Below, one piece after another: positions 40-9,979 of a stretch of DNA of 40,374 bases. Positions within the stretch are counted from its first letter, which is position 1, and each line of letters starts with the position of its first letter. Source of the DNA: Promethearchaeota archaeon (GTDB taxonomy: Archaea; Asgardarchaeota; Lokiarchaeia; Sigyniarchaeales; SOKP01). The stretch is from contig JABCSY010000030.1 of assembly GCA_018238625.1 (NCBI GenBank), forward strand, positions 1 through 40,374. The letters are read 5' to 3'. The notes below the pieces were generated by a model, which ran no database searches, was not told where the DNA came from, and was given only the letters and a program-made list of their open reading frames with translations. A program made the position numbers and the translations under genes.

Positions 40-2004
40 TTAATATTTATGTGTTCCGCGGCAATATGGATATTCAGAACAACCCCAGAATCTCCCGAAT
101 TCCCCTTCGCGCAGGACCATTTTTGAACCGCATCTCGGGCAGCTCGGGATATTATTTACAATTGGATCCGTATCAATTTCCTTGTGGGACAGGTTTTCAA
201 AACGTTGTCTGAAGAGAGTGGAAGTTTTTTTGGCTGCGCTGGATGCTGGAAAATCTTCAAGGACTTTTTGTAATAAGGCGCTTCCTTGTTCGGAAAAGGA
301 TATAGCGTTTTTAGTGTTGCCTTCCCTGATGAAAAATTTTGCTTTTTCGAGGTAAAAATTTCCTGTTTCGAAAAGAATTTCGGGGTCTTCCGGGTTTTTA
401 GAGATTTTTATCAGCAGTGCTTCTTCCTGTGTGTCTATTTCATTTTTTGAAAATGTTTTTTCTGATGAGTCTTTGCCGGTTTCTATTATTTTGAATTCTT
501 TTCTGCCGAGCAAAACATCGATGCCTTTTTTGTTCAGAAAGATTACAGGGTGTTCGACCCCGCTTAATTTCAAAAATCCTTCAGAAATGAGCCGTTGAAG
601 AATTTCCATGGTTTTTTCCTGTGATTCTTTAATTGTGCTATAGGTTTTTAATTTATCAAAACCGTTTTGTTCGATAACCATTGCCTTCGATCCGGTTAGT
701 ATCTGGGCGATTCTTATTTTTATAAGGGGTTGTGGTATTTCTTTTACGCATCTCAACAGGTTTTCTGCCAGTTTTGCTTCCTGGATAGTATATCCGGCTT
801 CTTTAAAAGTTGGTTCATCTTCAAGTATTTCCCGGCCGATACAAATATCACATCCGGGGCAGAGGTCTTTTTCATATTTCTCGCCGAAGTATTCGAGCAG
901 CATTTTTCTCCTGCAGCGGTGAGATGTAGCATATTGGATAATTTGGTGAAGTTTTTTTACTTCGTGATTTCTCTGGATCTCCATTTTTTCCCAGGGAATG
1001 TTAAGTTTATCAAAGGGCGTATTGAAATCCTTTATAAGTATGGAGCGTCCTCTAAAAGGAGATGAATATTTAATGAGATTTAGTTTATCCATGTTGTTTA
1101 AAGTGCGGGAGATCTGGTCAGATTTTAGGCCTGCTGATTTAATTAGATCTCGAAAGGAAAAAGAAAATGTGTTAGCATCTTTGTTTCCCCCCCCCATATC
1201 CATGATAGCCGAAGTAAGAGTTTTTTGTAGTTTGCTTTTTTGCCTTTTTAAAATTGTTTCAGGGGGTGTTCCAAATTTTACGCTGGCGACGTTATCAAAT
1301 CGGGAAAGAAGATCAATTGCGCCTGCTTTTTTCAGGATTCTCAGTGTGCTTGAGATACCCTGTTCACTAATTTCTATATTTAATGATTTTTTTATTTCTT
1401 CACGTGTTTTTGACACGGGATTTTCATCCTGGTTTATGAGATAGTTGTGTACCAGGTACACCTGCTGTTTTGTAGGATGGTTCTGCGCAATAAAATATTC
1501 CTGCAGTTTAATGTCAGATGGGGAGTAGAGAAGTATGCACCATGCTTTTTTACCATCTCTGCCGGCCCTGCCGGCTTCCTGGTAATAGCTTTCAATATTT
1601 CCGGGAATTATTCCTGCTAATTCCAAGGATTTCTTAATAGTTGGTCTTGTATTTAAGGATAAAATGGCTAGTTTAGTCCCCCTTTTTACGCCAAACAATT
1701 TTGTATTATTGATAAAGTAGATTGTCTCTTCAATAGGTTCGTTCTTTTCTATGTTATCAAGTTCGTATTGCTTAATAACATCAAAATTACGTTGTAATTC
1801 CGCTTCGTCTCCTTTTCCGACAATATCACTAAGACAAGCGGAAATGCTCGTAAATTGACAGTCATCTTGAAAATGTTCAGAATAACGATCGTTTAAAACT
1901 TTTTTTAATGAATACCAATCTGCCGCTAATCTAACGATCGTACCATCTAAATCGAACACAATTACTTTCTTATCTTTCAGTGGAAGTATTTTACTCTTAT
2001 CCAT
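40..2004 (-). CDS. Chimeric ORF: N-terminal HAD-like hydrolase fragment fused in frame to the C-terminal half of a RecQ helicase (motif VI, Zn-binding, RQC, C-terminal topoisomerase-type C4 zinc finger)
   Basis: HAD motif I (VIVFDLDGT) and motif II-like LSLNT are present, but there is no HAD C-terminal motif. Then IPGNIESYYQEAGRAGRDG (RecQ motif VI), CRR...CPGCDIC and CPRCG...FWGCSEYPYC follow. RecQ motifs I-V are absent. Junction about 1604-1614. Confidence 0.75.
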   Translation of the reverse strand: MDKSKILPLKDKKVIVFDLDGTIVRLAADWYSLKKVLNDRYSEHFQDDCQFTSISACLSDIVGKGDEAELQRNFDVIKQYELDNIEKNEPIEETIYFINNTKLFGVKRGTKLAILSLNTRPTIKKSLELAGIIPGNIESYYQEAGRAGRDGKKAWCILLYSPSDIKLQEYFIAQNHPTKQQVYLVHNYLINQDENPVSKTREEIKKSLNIEISEQGISSTLRILKKAGAIDLLSRFDNVASVKFGTPPETILKRQKSKLQKTLTSAIMDMGGGNKDANTFSFSFRDLIKSAGLKSDQISRTLNNMDKLNLIKYSSPFRGRSILIKDFNTPFDKLNIPWEKMEIQRNHEVKKLHQIIQYATSHRCRRKMLLEYFGEKYEKDLCPGCDICIGREILEDEPTFKEAGYTIQEAKLAENLLRCVKEIPQPLIKIRIAQILTGSKAMVIEQNGFDKLKTYSTIKESQEKTMEILQRLISEGFLKLSGVEHPVIFLNKKGIDVLLGRKEFKIIETGKDSSEKTFSKNEIDTQEEALLIKISKNPEDPEILFETGNFYLEKAKFFIREGNTKNAISFSEQGSALLQKVLEDFPASSAAKKTSTLFRQRFENLSHKEIDTDPIVNNIPSCPRCGSKMVLREGEFGRFWGCSEYPYCRGTHKY

Positions 2005-2086
2005 GTTTCATATTCAACAAGACTAATGAATAAATAAGATAATTTTACATAAAAAATAAGTTTTCGTTATAAATTTTCAAATCAAT

Positions 2087-3019
2087 TTATAAACGCGAAT
2101 AATACATCGCTCTGTACCCAATTTTGTGAAACGGACATTCCTTTATACAAATAGAACATCCCGTAGTTTCGTAAAAATATTCGATGCATTTTTCTCCATC
2201 AATTCTAGTTTTTATACCGTTTTCTTTGATAATTGGTTCGTAGTAAATCGCGTTCACGGGGCACATTTGAACGCATCTTTTGCATTTCTTACAATACTCG
2301 TCTATCTCAAAATTTTCTTGAGAAACGTCAGGAAGAGGGGTTGCGTTCACAGAAATCATGGATAATCTCTGCCTTGGACCGAATTTTTTAGTGATTAAAA
2401 TACCTTGAGTTCCAATTTTCCCCAATCCTGCTTTTACTGCCATCGCGGGTAAAAGAATTGGACCACCAAGTGGATGGCACGCAATTGCTCTATAACCTTT
2501 AGATCTAATAAAATCTGCTAATTTGTTTGTCGCCTCACCTAACTCTGCGTATATGTTTAAAGATTCTAACCCTGCTGGAGGTTCAGGAGCCTGATCTATA
2601 GCTTCGTAATCCATTTCCATTCCTAAAACAATTCCATTCTCGTATAGAAATTCGATTCCGCCTACATAATCGTTCTTAAAAATAAAATTTTCGTCCACAG
2701 GCGCAAATCCTACAAGATCAATTCCTAAAATCTTCGCTTGCTCGATAACTTCTTCCCAAAATTCTTTAGGTGCGGATTGAGGTTTGTCAGGTAGGTTTTT
2801 CATTTCTCTTTTGTAATCCGTTTTTGCTCTTTGAACAGTTTTGAAGAGTTTCGGAACTACTATTTTAGCTTTGTCAGATAATTGGCCCTTAAATTCTCTT
2901 ATATCAAATTTATTCAGTTCTATTAGCCGTGATTTCAATCCTTTGGATTTTTTTAACAATTCTAACACCGAAAAATTAATTAGTTGCTTTAATCCACTCA
3001 GTTTTATAAAGATTATCAT
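2087..3019 (-). CDS. Reductive dehalogenase / epoxyqueuosine reductase (QueG)-like cobalamin, 2x[4Fe-4S] protein
   Basis: AVKAGLGKIG...LITKKFGPRQRL motif, CKKCKRCVQMCP and C...GCSICIKECPF ferredoxin motifs. No Tat signal seen. Confidence 0.8.
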   Translation of the reverse strand: MIIFIKLSGLKQLINFSVLELLKKSKGLKSRLIELNKFDIREFKGQLSDKAKIVVPKLFKTVQRAKTDYKREMKNLPDKPQSAPKEFWEEVIEQAKILGIDLVGFAPVDENFIFKNDYVGGIEFLYENGIVLGMEMDYEAIDQAPEPPAGLESLNIYAELGEATNKLADFIRSKGYRAIACHPLGGPILLPAMAVKAGLGKIGTQGILITKKFGPRQRLSMISVNATPLPDVSQENFEIDEYCKKCKRCVQMCPVNAIYYEPIIKENGIKTRIDGEKCIEYFYETTGCSICIKECPFHKIGYRAMYYSRL

Positions 3020-3126
3020 TTTACAGCTGAAGAAATAACCTTATTATATCTTCCATATTCTAATTGGATTTTATTTGCTAAATAAACAATCTAAGCATTA
3101 AATTGTGAAATTGAAAAATAGAAAAT

Positions 3127-3148
3127 AAAAAATGGAGTAAAAACTCCA
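3127..3148 (-). terminator. Hairpin plus T-tract, terminator-like
   Basis: Minus strand reads TGGAGT-TTTT-ACTCCA followed by TTTTTT. Confidence 0.55.
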
Positions 3149-3345
3149 GAACACACTCCCACCAAAATACAACCACACCATCTCACTTCTTAACTTCGCA
3201 AAACATACAACATTAACAAACATGCATCGCATCCCACTCATGTAAACTCAATTCACACTAAGCTTGAACTTTGAGCCCCTTTTTCAAATGTCACACACCA
3301 GCGCTGTTGAGAGTAGCGGACAAAACACAACTGCTTCTTTCCTTT
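3127..3345 (-). ncRNA. Putative GU-rich small transcript (ncRNA, or a 47-aa ORF at 3098-3241)
   Basis: Abrupt strand-skewed CA-rich (plus) / GT-rich (minus) block. TATA-like TATAAATA at about 3373-3366 on the minus strand and a terminator-like hairpin at its 3' end. Confidence 0.35.
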
Positions 3346-3397
3346 GTATTATTTATGACAAAATTATTTATAGAATAACTTTATTTATAAGGTAGAA

Positions 3398-5845
3398 GTG
3401 GTCTATTTTATGATGAATATAAAAATGAAAAATATTTTTGCTTTTTTAATGCTATTTCTGATAATTTTTTCAATTTCTAATCAAAATAATATGAAAAATT
3501 GTATTGAACCTGCTCAAGAGGATTTGAAAATTAGAACATTTAATTTAAAATCTGCAGGATTTTGGAATAACTTTACATTTATCCATATTACTAATTTAAA
3601 TTGGACAATTGCTAATGAAACTGATTGGTGTTCTGGATCAGGTACTTGGGATAATCCCTATTTAATTGAAAACATGATAATTAATGCAAGTGATTCTCCA
3701 ATAGGTTCTGGTATTTTTATTGAAAATTCCATTAATGTGTATTTTACAATTAGAAATGTTACAATATTTGAAACCACTAATGGAATTAAGTTAGAAAATA
3801 CGAATAATGGGGCTTTAATTAATAATAGGCTATTAGATAACTTAGACTCGGGAATTAGCTTGGTTAATTGCGTTAATAATACAATTTCAAAAAATGAATT
3901 AATTAATAACGGGGGACAGGGAATTAATTTATTCTCAAATTGTATTAATAATAAAATCCTTGGAAATATAGCAAAAAATGATGGTACAAATTTCCAAGAT
4001 ACTGGAATATATCTTAATAGTTATTGCGATAACAATGAAATTATGGAAAATATAGTATCTGATAATGATGTTAATGGAATATTTCTTAATAATTTTTGTG
4101 AAGGAAACTTGATATATAATAATACAGTTAAAAATACAATTACAAATCAGCAAGATTATGGTATAAGATTTGATGATAGTGATCAGAACAATGTCTCACT
4201 AAATGTAATTGAAGATCTTGATCATTATGGAATAAGGCTGGTTTCCTCTGAGAAAATTATTATATCAAATAATAAAATAATAAATTCCAATCGTGGAATA
4301 TCTTTGTTGATAACTCGTCAAATTGAAATTATTAGCAATACAATTTCAGGTGGTTCTACAGCAATTTTTATGAGTGCGGGTGATGTGGGAAAAATATATG
4401 GAAATTTTATAAATGAAACGGGAAGCTATGCAATAAGATTATTTATAAATTGCGATGACAATGAGTTTCACGATAACATTATTAAAGATAATAATAATGG
4501 GGTACAACTTGATGATCCCTCTGATATGAATAATAATTTTTATAAAAATTCCTTTATTTCAAATATAGTTCACGCTATTGATAACGGAACGGCAACTTTT
4601 TGGAATAATACAATGATTGGGAATTATTGGGATAATTACGCGGGATTGGATGCTAATGATGATCTAATAGGAGATATATGTCATATTATTCCCGGATCTG
4701 CCAACAGTAATGATTCATTACCGATATGGGATGATGGAGATGACTTACTTCCAGAGATTGTCATAAATTCACCTACAAATGGCTCAATATTCGCATTACC
4801 GCCCGAGTTTATAATTAATTTTTCTGATGTTAATTTTGATAAGCTCTGGGTAACCGTTAATTATTCAAATATCGAATATGGATTTATCGCGAGTCCCGGT
4901 AATAATGTACTAATTGACATGCCCTTTTCAATATGGAATTTATTACCTGAAGGCCATTTTCTAGTTAAAATCTATGTGAATGATACTGCTGGTAATGTCA
5001 ATTATGTTGAAGTAACTCTCATTAAGGAGCTCCCTCCAGAACTACCCTCCCTCAATGTAACTTTTATCATTGTTATTAGTATTATCGTAATATCGGTAAT
5101 TACAATTGCTGGAATTGTAATAAGAGGATTGCCAAAAAAGGATAAAATAAAAAAATCACGAAAACTAGATGAAGAGCAGTTATCAAAAGCGCAATATTTT
5201 AAAGATGTAACAAGCATTCTTACAATTTTAGCCATACATAATAAATCAGGCTTATGTCTATCTAAAATTGCCGCTCATGGCGGTACTGGATTGGATGAAC
5301 ATTTATTCACTGGCTTTATATCTGCTATGGGAAGTTTTAAAAATGAACTTGCTAAACAGATGGGTCTACCAGTTCGGGATGGAGGTGGAGATAATGTTAT
5401 TGAGTACAATGAATTTACTATTACCCTCATGGATGGTGAATATCTTAGATTAGGTTTAGTTTCTCATAAAAATCTTGGAGATTTAATAAAAGAACAGTGT
5501 GGACAGGTTTTAAGGGCTTATGAAATTAAGCATATTGATGATTTAAAAAACTTTGACGGCGAAATCCAAGTTTTCAATGATTTTGAGGAAAAAATTGAAA
5601 CCGGACTTGACATGAATCTGAATAAAAAATCTATCATTAATGTAAAACAATTAAATAAATATGATGCTCCTGAATCATTTATAACCATTTTAAACGATCT
5701 TAATTCAAGATCTGATGGGTTTTATCCTGCAGAAATCGCTTTAACCCTCGTGCAAGAAATGAATATTTCAGATCAAGAAGCTAATTTCATGGTCTATGAA
5801 GCCTATAAAAATCAATTATTTTTACCAATAAAATTAGAAAAATAA
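3398..5845 (+). CDS. Single-pass membrane protein: extracellular right-handed beta-helix (NosD-like) + Ig-like domain, TM helix, cytoplasmic longin-like domain
   Basis: N-terminal hydrophobic signal, GSGTWDNPYLIEN, many N-x-I-x-x-N/GI-x-L repeats, GNYWDNY, NDTAGN, TM at about 5057-5122, then ILAIHNKSGLCL...LFTGFISAM...IEY pattern typical of longin-like folds. Confidence 0.8.
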   Translation: MVYFMMNIKMKNIFAFLMLFLIIFSISNQNNMKNCIEPAQEDLKIRTFNLKSAGFWNNFTFIHITNLNWTIANETDWCSGSGTWDNPYLIENMIINASDSPIGSGIFIENSINVYFTIRNVTIFETTNGIKLENTNNGALINNRLLDNLDSGISLVNCVNNTISKNELINNGGQGINLFSNCINNKILGNIAKNDGTNFQDTGIYLNSYCDNNEIMENIVSDNDVNGIFLNNFCEGNLIYNNTVKNTITNQQDYGIRFDDSDQNNVSLNVIEDLDHYGIRLVSSEKIIISNNKIINSNRGISLLITRQIEIISNTISGGSTAIFMSAGDVGKIYGNFINETGSYAIRLFINCDDNEFHDNIIKDNNNGVQLDDPSDMNNNFYKNSFISNIVHAIDNGTATFWNNTMIGNYWDNYAGLDANDDLIGDICHIIPGSANSNDSLPIWDDGDDLLPEIVINSPTNGSIFALPPEFIINFSDVNFDKLWVTVNYSNIEYGFIASPGNNVLIDMPFSIWNLLPEGHFLVKIYVNDTAGNVNYVEVTLIKELPPELPSLNVTFIIVISIIVISVITIAGIVIRGLPKKDKIKKSRKLDEEQLSKAQYFKDVTSILTILAIHNKSGLCLSKIAAHGGTGLDEHLFTGFISAMGSFKNELAKQMGLPVRDGGGDNVIEYNEFTITLMDGEYLRLGLVSHKNLGDLIKEQCGQVLRAYEIKHIDDLKNFDGEIQVFNDFEEKIETGLDMNLNKKSIINVKQLNKYDAPESFITILNDLNSRSDGFYPAEIALTLVQEMNISDQEANFMVYEAYKNQLFLPIKLEK

Positions 5846-5936
5846 ATCTCTTAAGGTAACTCAGGATCATTCATACTGGCGTTTGACTTATGAAGTGTGT
5901 TAAAAAAGTAGAGATAAATAAATTAATAAAAATGAA

Positions 5937-6007
5937 CTAATCCATCGCGTATTTTTTAGTCCAAGAGGCTGCTTTAGCTTGAAACTTTTTCAAAGCCCTG
6001 AAATATT
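5937..6007 (-). repeat. Orphan duplicate of the E2 last exon (YFRALKKFQAKAASWTKKYAMD*)
   Basis: 71-nt direct repeat of 7601-7671; 58/71 identical, and all 13 differences are synonymous. Confidence 0.95.
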
Positions 6008-6009
6008 AA

Positions 6010-7509
6010 ATGAAAAAAAAAAGGTTGTGGATACAAAAATCAAAGGAGTATGGAAATTTAAATGTTATTTATGATATATGTGATATAATTATAAATCTTG
6101 ATAGAAAGAGTGATATCATCATAAATAATCGTAATCTTATTCATCAAGAAAATGAATTATTAAACAAACCTTGGGAAATTGTTGATTATTACTTTGATAA
6201 TATAGGTTTTTGTAGAAAATCATCTGATAGTTCAATAATTAGACATAATTACATCCCAATAAAATTTTTATCTAATAATATGAAATTAAAATGTAAGTAT
6301 TGTGGTCATGAGTTAACAAATAATGATATTTCCGGATTATATAAAGCAAAAAGACTTCAACTTTGGGAAGTGGATCAAAATAAAAATCCAAATGATATTA
6401 CAATCTATCTTATCAATTGGAGAAAAAATCAAGATGATAAGTATTTGAAATTTCCTGGTCTTTTTTATCCTGGGATGACAAGGAAAACTGCTAAAGAACG
6501 TGTATATGGAAATGGTGGTCATTTTTACAAGGCGTTTAGTAATCCAAAAACGGCGATTGAGTACACAATCAGAAAATACGGGCTTAATCCAAAAAAAGCT
6601 CAAAAATTATTTAAAGTAGAAGTTCTTCAAATTGTTGAAGATCAAGGCACTCAGAAAGCTACTCAAGAATTAGCTAATACAATAGAGAGCTTTTGGATTG
6701 GGTTTTTTCATTCACAATTTTATGAATTTGGAAGAAATATTGAACCAGGGGGTTCTATTGTGCGTAAATCCATAATTCTTCCTTTTGATTCTTTAGATAA
6801 AGCCTTACATGAAGCATGCATGCTTCCACGAATTGGTGCTATTAGTCGAAAGCCTTATGTTTATGATAAATTAGGAATGAGAGAGACGCAAAATCGTATA
6901 CTTGATAATAGTATTGAATTCTGGTATGGATTTACATTAGCTAGATTTGAAAATGTTATTAGGTTTAAAAGATTTAACATAATTCAAAATTTATTTGAAC
7001 TGGGATACAAGACAGCATATATTTCCAATGAAATTAATGCTGATAGACATGATATTATTAGATGGATTGAGGAAGACATTTATATTAATAAATATTTAGG
7101 ACTTTCCTATAAAGAAATTCGAATCGCTTTATTAAGTGATAAAATCAAGAAATATGTTTCAGAAGGACAAATAACTCCCGAGTTACTTTTGAATGTCCTT
7201 CCTGGATTCAAAAATTCTGATGCTATTAAACATTTTATTCGACAGCGTTTAGGTGGTTGGAATAATTTGATTGCTAACTATGCTTTAAAAGAGGATTATT
7301 GGTTAAAAGCAAAGAACTTATTTAAACAAAGAAAAAATGAGATAGAGTTAGGGAGGTCTTCTGATTATACTGCGGTAGAATTTGCTCAGGCTCTTGGTTC
7401 CAACACGATTCATACATCAGCAGCTATAAAATTTTTAAAAAGAAAATTAGACACAGATATGAATTGGTTAGAGATTAAGAGCTTACTATCAAAAAAAAAA
7501 ATAGATTAA
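6010..7509 (+). CDS. Free-standing GIY-YIG family (homing-type) endonuclease with a long C-terminal putative DNA-binding region
   Basis: TIY...FYPGMT...ER...H...FKVEVLQ...ANTIESFWI...S...GRNIEPGG (about 6400-6753) follows the GIY-YIG motif order (Y, Y-x-G, R, H, E, N..GG). A CKYC motif lies upstream. The true start may be downstream (e.g. ATG 6280). Confidence 0.75.
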   Translation: MKKKRLWIQKSKEYGNLNVIYDICDIIINLDRKSDIIINNRNLIHQENELLNKPWEIVDYYFDNIGFCRKSSDSSIIRHNYIPIKFLSNNMKLKCKYCGHELTNNDISGLYKAKRLQLWEVDQNKNPNDITIYLINWRKNQDDKYLKFPGLFYPGMTRKTAKERVYGNGGHFYKAFSNPKTAIEYTIRKYGLNPKKAQKLFKVEVLQIVEDQGTQKATQELANTIESFWIGFFHSQFYEFGRNIEPGGSIVRKSIILPFDSLDKALHEACMLPRIGAISRKPYVYDKLGMRETQNRILDNSIEFWYGFTLARFENVIRFKRFNIIQNLFELGYKTAYISNEINADRHDIIRWIEEDIYINKYLGLSYKEIRIALLSDKIKKYVSEGQITPELLLNVLPGFKNSDAIKHFIRQRLGGWNNLIANYALKEDYWLKAKNLFKQRKNEIELGRSSDYTAVEFAQALGSNTIHTSAAIKFLKRKLDTDMNWLEIKSLLSKKKID

Positions 7510-7600
7510 TATCCATTATATCAATGTTTTTTTTAACTAAGAATTATATATAAAACGAGTTATTCTGTAAAAAATAAGATAAAAAAAATATTATTTAGAC

Positions 7601-8209
7601 CTAATCCATAGCGTACTTTTTCGTCCATGAAGCAGCCTTAGCTTGGAACTTCTTAAGCGCCCTGAAGTATTGTTTTCTAGTTTATTAGGCATTTCCTAAT
7701 AAATCTCCAGCCTCATGGTTAAGAGGGTCTCCAGGGTTAAAGAAGGGAGGCTCTACATGCTTGCAGTTGAGGAATGAAACATTTCTCAATATCATGCCCT
7801 TTAGAGCCTCTATTATATTAGTTAGAGTCTTGGACGGTGTCCACCCACTAGCTCCAGTGCTAGCATCTACCTTCCCTACTAAATCGGGGTTAATTAAATC
7901 TAAACAAATATTAAGCTTTCCGGGAGGTATGGATGAATCTATGTTTGGATGCCACATGAGGGTTACCGCGTAAGCATTTCTCCGAAATAGATTAACCATC
8001 TAATTCAATGGAGGTGCAAACGGGTAATTTTCCGGGAACTTAATTTCGAAAATAAACTTTCCTTTATAATAAGGCGTTCCATCTTTTCCGATGATTGTAA
8101 GCCGGAGATGATCGATACTACGACCCCATGGTTCGATGATTATGTTACTGTCGTCTTTGTACGATTCGATGGCTTCAGTATAATCAGTTTCTTCTCTCAT
8201 AATACTCAC
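7601..8209 (-). CDS. Ubiquitin-conjugating enzyme E2, four exons (8209-8008, 7977-7791, 7760-7705, 7674-7601), 172 aa after splicing
   Basis: GTPY..G.F...I.FPENYPFAPP, WHPNI, catalytic NICLDLI, GWTPS..L, DPLN.EA and A..WTKKYA are all in one frame. The ORF track splits it only because of in-frame stops inside 30-nt hairpin inserts. Confidence 0.9.
7675..7704 (-). other. Putative BHB mRNA intron 3 (30 nt, contains in-frame TAA TAA)
   Basis: CTGG-AG^A-TTTATTAGG-AAATG-CCTAATAAA-CTAG-AA^A. Excision gives NHEAGEQYFRALKK. Confidence 0.85.
7761..7790 (-). other. Putative relaxed-BHB mRNA intron 2 (30 nt, no stop codon)
   Basis: GCA(T)G-AT^A-TTGAGAAATG-TTT-CATTCCTCAA-CTGC-AA^G, closed by a perfect 9-bp exon-exon helix GAGGCTCTA/TAGAGCCTC. 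Excision gives LKGMMHVEPP. Exact boundaries are less certain. Confidence 0.7.
7978..8007 (-). other. Putative BHB mRNA intron 1 (30 nt, contains in-frame TAG)
   Basis: CTCC-AT^T-GAATTAGAT-GGTTA-ATCTATTTC-GGAG-AA^A. Excision gives PPYAYAVTLMWHPNI, restoring canonical E2 PP-x5-T-x2-WHPNI spacing. Confidence 0.85.
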
Positions 8210-8653
8210 TTTTCTTTTAAAATATTAAAACAATGTTAAATATCTAGTTAGGGTTTTCTTTAAAAAATATTGTGTAAATTTCGATTTTTGTTGTAAATCG
8301 GATAAATTGCAAAATATAGCAAGATTCAAAAGTTTTGTTTTTACAGATTAGAAAAATCCCTCTATTCGCATTATATCTGTTAAAAATCGCAAAAATTTTA
8401 TTTATTTCTCATATTGAAATAGAGGTTTTAATAATTTTTATGATCAATAGAATTATATTTTCTTAAAAATGGGAGTTCCGAAGACTTTTCGTTTTTTTAT
8501 TATGATGATCGAAAATAATTCGTTAGATTTATTATATATGATTTTTATATTTAAATTGTATCTATTTAATTAGATCAATTTACTAATAAATATACTGATA
8601 AAAATTAGAATTGAATTTTATTCGGATAAATTAAAAATTATAAATAAAAAAAG

Positions 8654-9979
8654 GTGAAGATTATTTATAAAAAACTTGTAGTTTTAACCGAAAAAGTTGA
8701 GGATTTAGAAATTAAGGAGAGTACCAAACCGGATAAGAATCCATTTGAAATGGCAAAAATGCAATTTGACATAGTTGCTGAAAAGATGGGTTTAGACGAA
8801 AACATTAGCAAGTACCTTAAAAGGATAGAGCGTTCGTTAATTGTTTCGATTCCAATTATTATGGATAATGGAGATCTTGAGGTTTTTGAGGGATATAGAG
8901 TGCACCACTCTACAGTTCGAGGTCCTGGGAAAGGCGGGTTACGTTATTCTGAAGGTGTTTTTCTTGACGAAGTTAAAGCTCTTGCGATGTGGATGACTTG
9001 GAAAAATAGTCTGCTAAATCTTCCTTTAGGGGGGGCAAAAGGTGGTGTGTGTGTTGATCCTAGTAAACTTTCAAAAAAAGAACTTGAAAGATTAACTCGA
9101 AGATTTACCGCTGAAATAATTAATGTAATAGGTCCTGATATCGATATACCTGCTCCAGATATTAACACAAATCCCCAAATTATGGCATGGATCATGGATG
9201 TATATTCAATGCAAAAGGGAAAGTCAGTTCCAGGGGTAGTTACTGGAAAGCCGATCGAGATTGGAGGGTCTGTTGGAAGAGAGACAGCAACAGGAAGAGG
9301 GTTATACTTTATACTTCAAGCAATATGCGAAAAACTAGATTTAGATTTGAAATCCTTAAAAATTGTAATTCAAGGATTTGGAAATGTTGGAGGAAACATT
9401 GCTAAAATATTATATGAAGAGGGAGTTAAAGTAATAGCAGTTTCAGACATTAGTGGTGGCTTATTTGACGAACAAGGATTGAACATAAAAGAATTACTAG
9501 AATGGAGAGATAAAAATGGCTTATTAAAAGATTTTTATGAAAGGGATTATTTTTTTGTCAGTAATAAAGATCTTTTAGAAATTAAGTGCGATGTTTTAAT
9601 TCCTGCTTCGATAGAAAATCAAATAACTGAATCTAATGCATATAATTTAGATTGTAAGGTTATATTGGAAGGTGCTAATGGTCCAACAACCCCGGAAGCA
9701 GATGAGATTCTGGAAAGAAGAGAAATAATCGTCGTACCAGATATTCTAGCTAATGCTGGTGGAGTTTGTGTTTCTTATTTTGAATATGTTCAAGATCTTC
9801 AAAGCTATTTTTGGAAATTGGATCGGATTAACCAAGAATTAAGAAATATTATGATTGAGGCATTTGAAGAAGTTTACAAGATATCTAATGAGAAAAAAGT
9901 GACTTTAAGGATAGCAGCATATATGATTGCAATATCAAGGTTAAAAAAAGCTATTGAACTAAGAGGAATTTTTCCATAA
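8654..9979 (+). CDS. gdhA: Glutamate dehydrogenase (Glu/Leu/Phe/Val dehydrogenase family)
   Basis: RGPGKGGLRY, GGAKGG, DIPAPD, TGKP...GGS.GR..ATG, GFGNVG, EGANGP, PDILANAGGV. Confidence 0.95.
   Translation: MKIIYKKLVVLTEKVEDLEIKESTKPDKNPFEMAKMQFDIVAEKMGLDENISKYLKRIERSLIVSIPIIMDNGDLEVFEGYRVHHSTVRGPGKGGLRYSEGVFLDEVKALAMWMTWKNSLLNLPLGGAKGGVCVDPSKLSKKELERLTRRFTAEIINVIGPDIDIPAPDINTNPQIMAWIMDVYSMQKGKSVPGVVTGKPIEIGGSVGRETATGRGLYFILQAICEKLDLDLKSLKIVIQGFGNVGGNIAKILYEEGVKVIAVSDISGGLFDEQGLNIKELLEWRDKNGLLKDFYERDYFFVSNKDLLEIKCDVLIPASIENQITESNAYNLDCKVILEGANGPTTPEADEILERREIIVVPDILANAGGVCVSYFEYVQDLQSYFWKLDRINQELRNIMIEAFEEVYKISNEKKVTLRIAAYMIAISRLKKAIELRGIFP

Follow-up and report, generated by a model that had tools for sequence, protein, structure and literature searches.

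The DNA analysed here is a stretch of 40,374 nt from a Promethearchaeia (Lokiarchaeia-type) archaeon, hereafter referred to as the window, with all coordinates given on its forward strand. The window contains the gene of the ubiquitin-conjugating enzyme E2, the 3′ end of which is present in two copies with a free-standing gene for a GIY-YIG-type nuclease between them (Table 1). This arrangement probably reflects a homing-endonuclease element which lodged in the 3′ end of E2 in the manner of the mobile-ORF (mORF) elements of fungal mitochondria, and with which introns of the bulge-helix-bulge (BHB) type were imported into the gene.

For comparison, 90 E2 loci from genomes of the same family were aligned, 83 of them full-length and 7 partial; E2 was detected in 97 of the 100 other genomes of the family. 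The assembly of the window, with a contamination of 7.6%, holds two alleles of the locus (contigs C91 and C185). The second allele is carried by C185 (G000:C185:22122-23567, locus L002). Among the metagenome contigs, L115 and L116 were counted as one locus and L117 as a separate one. Throughout the family, E2 is followed on the same strand by the gene of an iron-sulphur (Fe-S) protein and/or a HAD hydrolase gene; relative to this ancestral order, the nuclease gene is an insertion between E2 and its Fe-S/HAD neighbours.

Table 1. Features of the E2 locus in the window, with the basis of each assignment.
Feature	Position	Strand	Basis
T-rich terminator flank of native type, attached to the orphan	5896..5936	-	alignment with the E2 3′ flank in G060, a nuclease-free congener
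Orphan E2 3′ end (E2 nt 440-507 + stop), putative displaced native terminus	5937..6007	-	same peptide as the attached copy; alignment with G060
Free-standing GIY-YIG-type nuclease gene, 499-aa frame	6010..7509	+	open reading frame, convergent to E2
Zn-ribbon and GIY-YIG catalytic core (residues 76-252)	6235..6765	+	conserved residues, profile, domain model
All-helical C-terminal half	6766..7506	+	pLDDT mostly >85; helix-turn-helix-like matches
Spacer separating E2 from the convergent nuclease gene, with the T-rich 3′ flank of E2 which the element is proposed to carry	7510..7600		flank comparison
E2 exon 4 (nt 437-507 + stop), proposed element-borne replacement end	7601..7674	-	repeat; no allele closer than 55/68
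Intron 3 (site E, after nt 436), 30 nt, two in-frame TAA	7675..7704	-	absent from C185 and all other sampled alleles
E2 exon 3 (nt 381-436)	7705..7760	-	orthologue alignment
Intron 2 (site C, after nt 380), 30 nt, in frame, stop-free	7761..7790	-	insertion relative to 73 intronless alleles
E2 exon 2 (nt 194-380), including the catalytic HPN...C region	7791..7977	-	alignment, UQ_con match
Intron 1 (site B, after nt 193), 30 nt, in-frame TAG, canonical hBHBh′	7978..8007	-	fold; absence from C185
E2 exon 1 (nt 1-193)	8008..8200	-	nt 1-167 (8034-8200) of local, C185-like type

The duplicated 3′ end of the E2 gene

The segments 7601-7671 and 5937-6007 on the minus strand each encode the last 22 residues of E2, YFRALKKFQAKAASWTKKYAMD, followed by a stop codon. 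The two copies differ at 13 of 71 nt. Of these differences, 12 affect the third base of a codon and one the first base of a leucine codon; all 13 are synonymous and no residue is changed. This pair constitutes the sole repeat between the two 1.5-kb flanks of the nuclease frame (tblastx E 4.6e-12), and its identical core is nowhere longer than about 11 nt. In a local-alignment scan of 328 flank comparisons, duplicates were detected at three loci, namely in the window (score 98), G002 (80) and G036 (161), all remaining comparisons scoring 54 or less, and a chance origin of the E2-end duplicate can be dismissed on these alignments. Homology of the orphan copy begins 3 nt into exon 4, at E2 nt 440, with the position of intron 3 set by the BHB rule and by the intronless allele. 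The orphan thus starts 3 nt from the intron at site E, a proximity (3 nt or less from any of the three introns) which would arise by chance in about 4% of cases, and ends 2 nt from the nuclease frame.

Among the congeneric alleles, the orphan is closest to that of G060 (64 of 68 nt identical), followed by C185 (61 of 68) and G098 (60 of 68). The alignment with G060, which possesses an intronless E2 and no nuclease gene at the locus, starts exactly at nt 440. Moreover, about 40 nt beyond the stop codon of the orphan align with the 3′ flank of the G060 gene (score 51; runner-up 37). The copy attached to the gene reaches at best 55 of 68 nt among the 85 alleles compared, the grouping into native and attached ends being based on identity counts over 68 nt and not on a tree. 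Since the orphan is closest to the allele of a nuclease-free congener and shares the 3′ flank of that allele, it is best regarded as the native E2 3′ end of the recipient. The T-rich flank at 7510-7600 is common to C185, G098 and L115/L116 (score 66) and is found in weaker form in nuclease-free congeners, and is for this reason not specific to the element; G098, in which the Fe-S gene is truncated, was itself classed as nuclease-free. The idea that such an H-type 3′ flank represents the scar of a lost nuclease gene was dropped on account of the similar flanks of nuclease-free congeners.

The attached end belongs to a longer tract that sets the window apart from C185. Over nt 1-167 the two E2 alleles show 4 differences in 167 nt, over nt 168-507 they show 60 in 340; the best break falls after nt 167, and none of 1000 permutations reached the statistic. 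The spacer upstream of E2 and the adjacent GDH gene are 97% identical to C185, and all three introns of the window are situated within the diverged tract. From nt 168 on, the gene therewith looks imported, its apparent ancestry differing from that of the 5′ part. All 64 differences are silent, none being a replacement, and the predicted spliced proteins of 169 residues are identical. The identity of the spliced protein despite 64 nucleotide differences indicates that the interrupted gene has been kept under selection. Likewise, 13 silent changes out of 13 would not be expected from the decay of a dead copy, and the two E2 ends therefore display the ordinary divergence of two functional alleles, neither recoding nor decay.

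These results partly agree with an earlier note on this DNA, made from the sequence alone. The duplication of the same 22 residues plus stop with 13 synonymous differences in 71 nt was reproduced at the same coordinates, and so was the onset of homology 3 nt into exon 4 next to the site of intron 3, exon 4 being 7601-7674 and the onset nt 440. Its proposal that the orphan is the original 3′ end of the recipient was supported by the comparison with nuclease-free alleles, of which G060 is the closest and shares the flank. Its view of an imported 3′ exon with an intron can be extended, as the attached end together with about 340 nt upstream appears foreign and includes all introns. The supposed recoding of this end had to be given up in favour of ordinary synonymous allele divergence, the remaining 3′ tract being about as diverged (60 of 340 nt).

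Along the remaining contig, C185 aligns with the window at 1609-3047 (92% identity) and at 7429-8792 (82-97%), and 3048-7428 is absent from it. The homology ends at 1609 within a gene, a 654-aa frame (43-2004, minus strand) which combines a HAD-like N-terminus with the C-terminal domains of RecQ (RecQ_Zn_bind, RQC, Top1 Zn-ribbon); this composite suggests a rearrangement or a join at that point. At 3398-5845 an 815-aa NosD/β-helix protein is encoded, with a signal-like N-terminus, a membrane segment and a cytoplasmic tail of about 200 residues, for which no Pfam match was found. The NosD-like gene is absent from the corresponding position in C185 and L115/L116.

The nuclease gene and its distribution

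A profile of residues 76-252, derived from 16 relatives of the 499-aa open reading frame (ORF), retrieved 1019 proteins at E<=1e-3 from 1.84 billion representatives. The remote matches carry PF01541, PF19835 SegE_GIY-YIG and NUMOD3; of ten sampled (E 4e-10 to 1e-8), all pass the PF01541 cut-off and seven have NUMOD3. Neighbours in the ESM Atlas belong to GIY-YIG families (0.93), which was taken as a lead only. By way of this profile, and hence transitively, the ORF is assigned to the GIY-YIG-type nucleases. PF01541 gave a direct match neither to the window protein nor to 11 other aligned relatives; the label given in the earlier note consequently stands by profile, although not by direct Pfam match.

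GIY-YIG nucleases share a characteristic order of residues, comprising Tyr (GIY), Tyr-x-Gly (YIG), Arg, His/Tyr, Glu and Asn. Among 12-16 relatives of the window protein, Cys95, Cys98, Tyr133, Tyr153, Gly155, Glu226 and Asn243 are invariant, and Thr157 and His171 nearly so. The arginine of the motif, Arg164, is found in the E2-linked subfamily and is unaligned in the two most distant members. The model of the core domain (predicted local distance difference test, pLDDT, 81; predicted template modelling score, pTM, 0.78) displays the β-β-α-α-β-α order expected of the GIY-YIG fold, a three-stranded sheet with flanking helices, and the CxxC Zn-ribbon is N-terminal to the core. Foldseek comparison of this model with the PDB returned no GIY-YIG structure, the top matches being Zn-ribbons at E 0.36. 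For the C-terminal half, Foldseek matches comprised the helix-turn-helix (HTH) domain of AraT (probability 0.99, TM 0.60 on the target) and SelB, sigma and RcsB folds, none of them significant by E-value, and two members each gave weak Pfam matches to HTH_7 and HTH_40. According to the model, this half probably forms a DNA-binding array of HTH-like modules. The ratio of non-synonymous to synonymous substitution rates (dN/dS) against three relatives amounts to 0.21-0.26, which points to purifying selection on the nuclease gene.

At the N-terminus, residues 1-67 are modelled with a pLDDT below 50, the starts of the relatives align with codon 6, and L115 has a stop codon in this stretch. For these reasons translation probably does not begin at the ATG located 2 bases from the orphan; the true start may be TTG 6025 or lie farther downstream. 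In three very long proteins of 1336-1795 aa (P0013, P0026, P0037), the Zn-ribbon and GIY-YIG module is situated near the C-terminus; these may be fusions or mis-called genes.

In the searches made, matches of the nuclease family were confined to Promethearchaeia/Promethearchaeota records. The ORF occurs in 6 of the 100 other genomes of the family and in one of 31 within the same genus, where it resides at another locus. Its closest relative, P0001, is 91% identical. The closer relatives in G002, L115/L116 and L117 (47-86% identity) are all convergent to the 3′ end of E2, and C185 retains a remnant consisting of the last 26 codons of the nuclease gene. Relatives of about 30% identity are located away from E2. 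Two of these, in different genera, adjoin a BacA/UppP gene (L063, G040:C13, 3001-5574; L010, G044:C214, 772-3193), which suggests another target for this branch; no flanking duplication was found at the BacA/UppP-linked loci. Judged from these records, the distribution is sporadic and mobile-like, centred on one conserved site. Together with the family assignment it supports the mobile, homing-type nuclease that the earlier note had envisaged.

Flanking repeats were found only in the window and in G002 among 17 loci of the ORF family. In G002, which belongs to another genus and encodes a nuclease of 47% identity, a decayed copy of the E2 end immediately precedes the nuclease gene. Its distance from the HAD gene is about 220 nt, the position expected for the native E2 end. 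This copy is most similar to the E2 of G002 itself (score 70-80; background <=54; shuffles <=32). A 13-nt repeat flanking the nuclease gene of L115 (E 0.009) was attributed to chance, as its order does not fit an orphan. In G036 (L059, G036:C14), an older and decayed 3′ third of E2, starting from about nt 384 or perhaps 343, is located at 7372-7503, 2.8 kb downstream of an intact, intronless E2, with genes for a beta-lactamase-family protein and a Zn-ribbon protein in between. The suggestion that this orphan also begins 3 nt after an intron site was abandoned, given its heavy decay and possible upstream extension to about nt 343.

BHB introns in the E2 gene

On the minus strand, the E2 frame extends from ATG 8200 to the stop codon at 7601 and gives a UQ_con match of 62 bits over the interrupted frame. 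It is interrupted by an in-frame TAG (8002-8000) and by two consecutive TAA (7687-7682). Two of the three inserts are precisely absent from C185, which reads PPYAYAV and AGEQYF across the respective sites. Within the family, 10 of the 83 full-length loci carry an insert and 73 are uninterrupted; 3 of the 7 partial loci carry one as well. The inserts fall at E2 nt 163/171 (site A), 193 (B), 380 (C), 388 (D) and 436 (E), and a sixth site, F, was placed by eye at about nt 480 in the metagenome contigs L115/L116. Their lengths range from 29 to 39 nt and are not all multiples of three; read-through therefore cannot explain them.

The fold at site B is formed by a 4-bp helix (CUCC/GGAG) between the 3-nt bulges AUU and AAA, complemented by an intron hairpin and an outer helix (z -5.27; 0 of 200 shuffles as good). 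Introns at this site are also present in G009, G020 and G090. At site C, the window fold (z -3.07) has a central helix that is not canonical; the intron is 90% identical to the one at the same site in L115/L116, and the G044 copy has a canonical central helix. Site E displays a 9-bp hairpin, a 4-bp helix (CUGG/CUAG) and a 3-nt bulge with a poor outer helix (z -1.75; 14 of 200 shuffles as good). In the seven alleles with an intron at site D, 89.5% of the cells are paired, compared with 20-42% when the partner strand is slid. Both partners have changed in 7 of 16 pairs, two of which belong to the four pairs of the exon-intron helix; this value was reached by 0 of 500 shuffles, though the structure was drawn from the same seven sequences and thus favours its own score. 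The BHB motif is canonical at sites B and D.

In BHB splicing, each bulge is cut after its second nucleotide. Cuts at this position at sites B, D and E recreate exactly the sequence of the intronless alleles, with the predicted joins PPYAYAV, GMMHVEPP and AGEQYF. The genome encodes two paralogues of the tRNA-splicing endonuclease EndA and one RtcB. The E2 inserts are accordingly classed by fold and covariation as BHB (tRNA-type) introns, predicted to be spliced out by EndA and RtcB. In G002, G007, G009, G011, G015, G020 and G059 the interrupted gene is the only E2 orthologue found.

Elsewhere in the genome, a strict BHB scan with 80 open codons on each side gave 8 matches compared with 6 in a shifted-partner control, and a looser scan with 50 codons gave 137 compared with 155 and 156 in the controls, hence no excess; as both scans also miss the introns of E2 with their short exons and imperfect hairpin, they say little about the frequency of mRNA introns. 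When four intron sequences were searched against the genome (blastn-short), nothing beyond chance words of 11-20 nt was returned; the introns accordingly do not form a repeat family.

Several further alleles show peculiarities around the intron sites. In L116 (Ga0209977_10002614, about 2630-2950) an in-frame tandem duplication of about 105 nt, corresponding to 35 residues around PPYAYAV, is present in E2. L115, which matches L116 in other respects, does not have it, and it may either stem from the assembly or be a genuine duplication at intron site B. In the congener G090, the gene is split over two contig ends (L044/L045, G090:C226 and C9) which overlap around sites A and B. The inserts of this allele measure 39 nt at site A and 30 nt at site B, and an Imm5-like immunity-protein gene occupies the 0.9-kb gap between E2 and the Fe-S gene. 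The nuclease-free loci L052, L053 and L054 (G007, G012, G015) share a 32-nt intron at site D and the same 460-480-aa gene between E2 and the HAD gene, the product of which has a Cys-rich N-terminus and a weak C-terminal match to the MIT domain.

Proposed insertion, alternatives and known systems

According to the mechanism we propose, the element (about 6008-7674) would consist of the GIY-YIG nuclease gene and its own last 68-71 nt of E2 with the 3′ flank. The nuclease would cut a nuclease-free E2 allele at or near nt 436-440, a position suggested by the orphan boundary by itself. By a presumed repair route, the upstream broken end would invade an occupied allele and copy the 3′ part of E2, the flank and the nuclease gene, and the other broken end would be captured and rejoined beyond the nuclease gene. 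E2 would then continue into the imported end and stay intact, and the recipient's own end from nt 440 on would be left as an orphan which, once present, could act as downstream homology arm for further homing. Gene conversion upstream to about nt 168 would bring in the three 30-nt introns, to be removed from the mRNA by EndA and the RtcB ligase. The link between this conversion tract and the nuclease is one we infer, as nuclease-free relatives are mosaic too. Site-specific integration was rejected as a mechanism, considering that no recombinase gene is present in the 1.66-kb element and that the repeats are without an identical core.

A number of observations weigh against this interpretation. 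The close relatives are mutually mosaic in the 3′ part of E2, nuclease-free ones included, and for this reason no donor can be named. The nuclease ORF has no direct Pfam, PDB-profile or Foldseek match to GIY-YIG. An orphan is present at only two of the four distinct loci with an intact nuclease gene (window, G002, L115/L116, L117), and the orphan-free loci simply have the nuclease gene with E2 on one side and the downstream gene on the other. The boundary of the G002 orphan is bracketed only to nt 437-454, and in G036 no nuclease gene separates the orphan from E2. With regard to the introns, that at site E is found in the window only; G002, L115 and L117 have the nuclease without it, and L115 and L117 look naive around nt 425-460. 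Furthermore, 10 of 13 intron-bearing genome loci have no nuclease of the family within about 3 kb, and sites A and B are far from the element. Finally, the contigs which support the joint between orphan and nuclease gene include 30 letters of the orphan, whereas 31 are required for bridging, and 5959-6007 is shared with a co-occurring intact allele, which makes the connection with the left flank ambiguous at k=31.

Those contigs derive from runs X1, X2 and X5 of three studies; they start at 5978 and cross into the nuclease gene with 0 mismatches, the X1 contig extending to 7837. They bear directly on the possibility that two strains were joined in the assembly across the shared exon 4 and that the orphan is the end of an intact E2 located elsewhere. 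The two alleles and the contamination of the assembly would fit such an artefact, as would the intact allele of X1 and X2, in which exon 4 equals the orphan over 5959-6007 and at which contigs break. However, the joint 6007/6008 does not coincide with the shared repeat and recurs in all three studies, an independent orphan is present in the G002 assembly, and a truncated exon 4 abuts the nuclease gene whatever stands left of 5958, so that an artefact appears highly improbable. The assembly check asked for in the earlier note thereby favours a genuine joint, though it does not extend to the left flank at k=31. Coexistence of occupied, emptied and naive alleles follows from the same runs, since X1 and X5 also contain the deletion joint of C185 type, and X1 and X2 contain intact alleles in which exon 4 resembles the orphan. 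We give just as little credence to unspliced 30-nt inserts and a dead E2 in the window, with C185 supplying the working copy. The in-frame stops and the second copy in the assembly would be in line with this, but 64 silent and 0 replacement differences from C185, BHB cuts falling exactly where intronless alleles are continuous, a structure preserved by covariation and seven genomes in which the interrupted gene is the sole orthologue found speak for a functional gene.

The nuclease gene could also be an old neighbour of E2, and the orphan could have arrived separately with the segment of the NosD-like gene (3398-5845), taken from a genome in which that gene adjoins an E2 3′ end, and not through the nuclease. 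L115/L116, and formerly C185, display the order Fe-S gene, nuclease gene and E2 free of an orphan, the extra DNA of the window relative to both is 3048-6007, which comprises the NosD-like gene and the orphan, and NosD-like genes lie within 3 kb of E2 in the congeners G001 and G051. Such a separate arrival would leave unexplained the orphan of G002, which fronts the nuclease gene beside the native HAD gene, as well as the closeness of the window's orphan to the nuclease frame (2 nt) and to an intron site (3 nt), and the fact that the 3′ part of E2 and not the orphan is the odd one among congeners; we therefore consider it unlikely. Equally to be weighed is an ORF which is no active homing nuclease but a domesticated DNA-binder or a remnant, next to an E2 made mosaic by ordinary strain recombination. 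The missing direct family match, the motif arginine that is not conserved in the most distant relatives and the mosaics in all four close alleles, with or without nuclease, are compatible with it. It is difficult to reconcile with catalytic-type residues invariant across 12-16 relatives, purifying selection, a sporadic distribution with a remnant in C185, and target-end duplications which among the 17 ORF-family loci occur only at nuclease-bearing E2 loci; its probability is accordingly rated as quite low.

If insertion by homing is accepted, an intron near the site (C, D or E) may protect occupied alleles from the nuclease. All five nuclease-linked alleles (window, G002, L115/L116, L117 and C185) have an intron at site C or D, that of C185 being at D. 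These two sites are 50-60 nt upstream of the boundary, and C, D, E and F all fall within about 60 nt of it. With a cut near nt 425-460, L115 and L117 would have to be protected by introns 50-60 nt away or by something elsewhere. A tentative extension, for which we see a possible but doubtful case, holds that the BHB mini-introns are immunity inserts against the free-standing GIY-YIG nuclease, spread by its conversion tracts. This would amount to collaborative homing with introns removed by the host's tRNA-splicing enzymes and to a DNA-level drive placing and spreading introns in a eukaryotic-type protein-coding gene of Asgard archaea, and an arms race over a single long target site would have left its mark in the clustering of sites C, D, E and F around the boundary, at distances of up to about 60 nt. 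At the nuclease-free intron-bearing loci, hmmsearch of frames of at least 80 aa within 3 kb returned no member of the family below E 0.25, other nuclease families not having been searched for. The co-occurrence of introns and nuclease expected by the earlier note thus holds from the side of the nuclease, every linked allele having a C or D intron, but not from the side of the introns, which in part corresponds to the refuting case set out there. Given the 10 of 13 intron loci without it and the distant sites A and B, the nuclease is not the general route of intron gain that had been suggested. What can be stated most safely is that new alleles can acquire introns through conversion tracts of the element, as would have happened in the window, and that the existence and movement of introns do not depend on it.

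Natural populations are polymorphic at the locus, with the three kinds of allele in the same sediments and six intron sites that vary among about 90 relatives. Entry and exit of introns in an Asgard protein-coding gene thereby become a question which can be answered through alleles, a cleavage assay and RNA data. For practical purposes, gene callers will split or truncate E2 here, and E2 gene trees will be mosaic.

Several known systems resemble parts of this locus. Integrative elements in the 3′ ends of tRNA genes carry a replacement end, and the old end stays as a direct repeat. Likewise, the E2 target would be kept intact by the carried copy of its end, with the old end at the far side; in contrast, no integrase is encoded in the 1.66 kb and the repeats differ at 13 of 71 nt. 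Seg proteins of T4-like phages and enzymes of the I-TevI type combine a GIY-YIG core with a separate DNA-binding part, and free-standing forms reside beside a conserved target and spread by co-conversion. The window nuclease resembles them in its core with separate putative DNA-binding part, in a gene adjoining a conserved target and in the apparent co-conversion of flanks. It differs in the N-terminal position of its Zn-ribbon and in its host, an archaeon and not a phage; NUMOD3 was not detected in the window protein. Moreover, the first and second tyrosine of the motif, usually about 11 residues apart in GIY-YIG enzymes of phage type, are 20 residues apart here. In the collaborative homing of cyanophage psbA, the free-standing nuclease F-CphI acts together with a group I intron lacking an ORF, which interrupts the target and co-moves. 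The window shares with it a free-standing nuclease gene next to a gene whose introns contain no nuclease gene, whereas its introns are of the BHB type, predicted to be cut by host enzymes and not ribozymes, they occupy several sites, and most intron alleles are nuclease-free.

BHB introns in archaeal pre-mRNA have been described for cbf5 of Crenarchaeota (PMC2738675), and Asgard archaea are reported to have intron-rich tRNA genes (bioRxiv 10.64898/2026.10.13.758758; PMC11291895). The E2 introns correspond to these in the two 3-nt bulges with a 4-bp helix, in the predicted removal by EndA and in the gain and loss among relatives. They differ in the gene concerned, in the six sites within 507 nt in one family and in the presence of up to three 30-nt introns per allele. 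Among the titles and abstracts listed by literature searches, none dealt with BHB introns in protein-coding genes of Asgard archaea; archaeal chromosomal elements of the mORF type were not searched for.

The closest counterpart is provided by the mORFs of fungal mitochondria, which are described for atp6 of Allomyces macrogynus, for atp6, atp9, cox2 and nad3 of Glomus sp., for atp9 of Rhizopus and for cox2 of Mortierella (PMC3630166). In these elements, an endonuclease ORF is accompanied by a foreign C-terminal end in frame with the host gene, and the native end is found downstream and is closest to that of a near relative; the native end of Glomus atp6 shows only synonymous differences from the relative, and one case, in atp9, involves a GIY-YIG enzyme (PMC3630166). 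In the window, the attached end at 7601-7674 and the orphan at 5937-6007 enclose the nuclease gene, and the orphan groups with congeners and the attached end does not. Both systems thus have a nuclease gene, an in-frame replacement end and a native end which is left behind and remains closest to a near relative. The window differs in its host, an archaeal chromosome, with E2 as target, in a convergent nuclease gene on the opposite strand that is not in phase with the host gene, in introns of the BHB type and not of group I or II, and in a lineage-restricted nuclease with a Zn-ribbon and a long helical tail. By analogy, the element can be viewed as one of the known mORF kind, here situated in an archaeal chromosome and combined with BHB introns in an mRNA. 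It would bring together three things previously described apart, namely a homing nuclease with a spare end, mRNA introns of tRNA type and a ubiquitin-system gene of the archaea nearest to eukaryotes.

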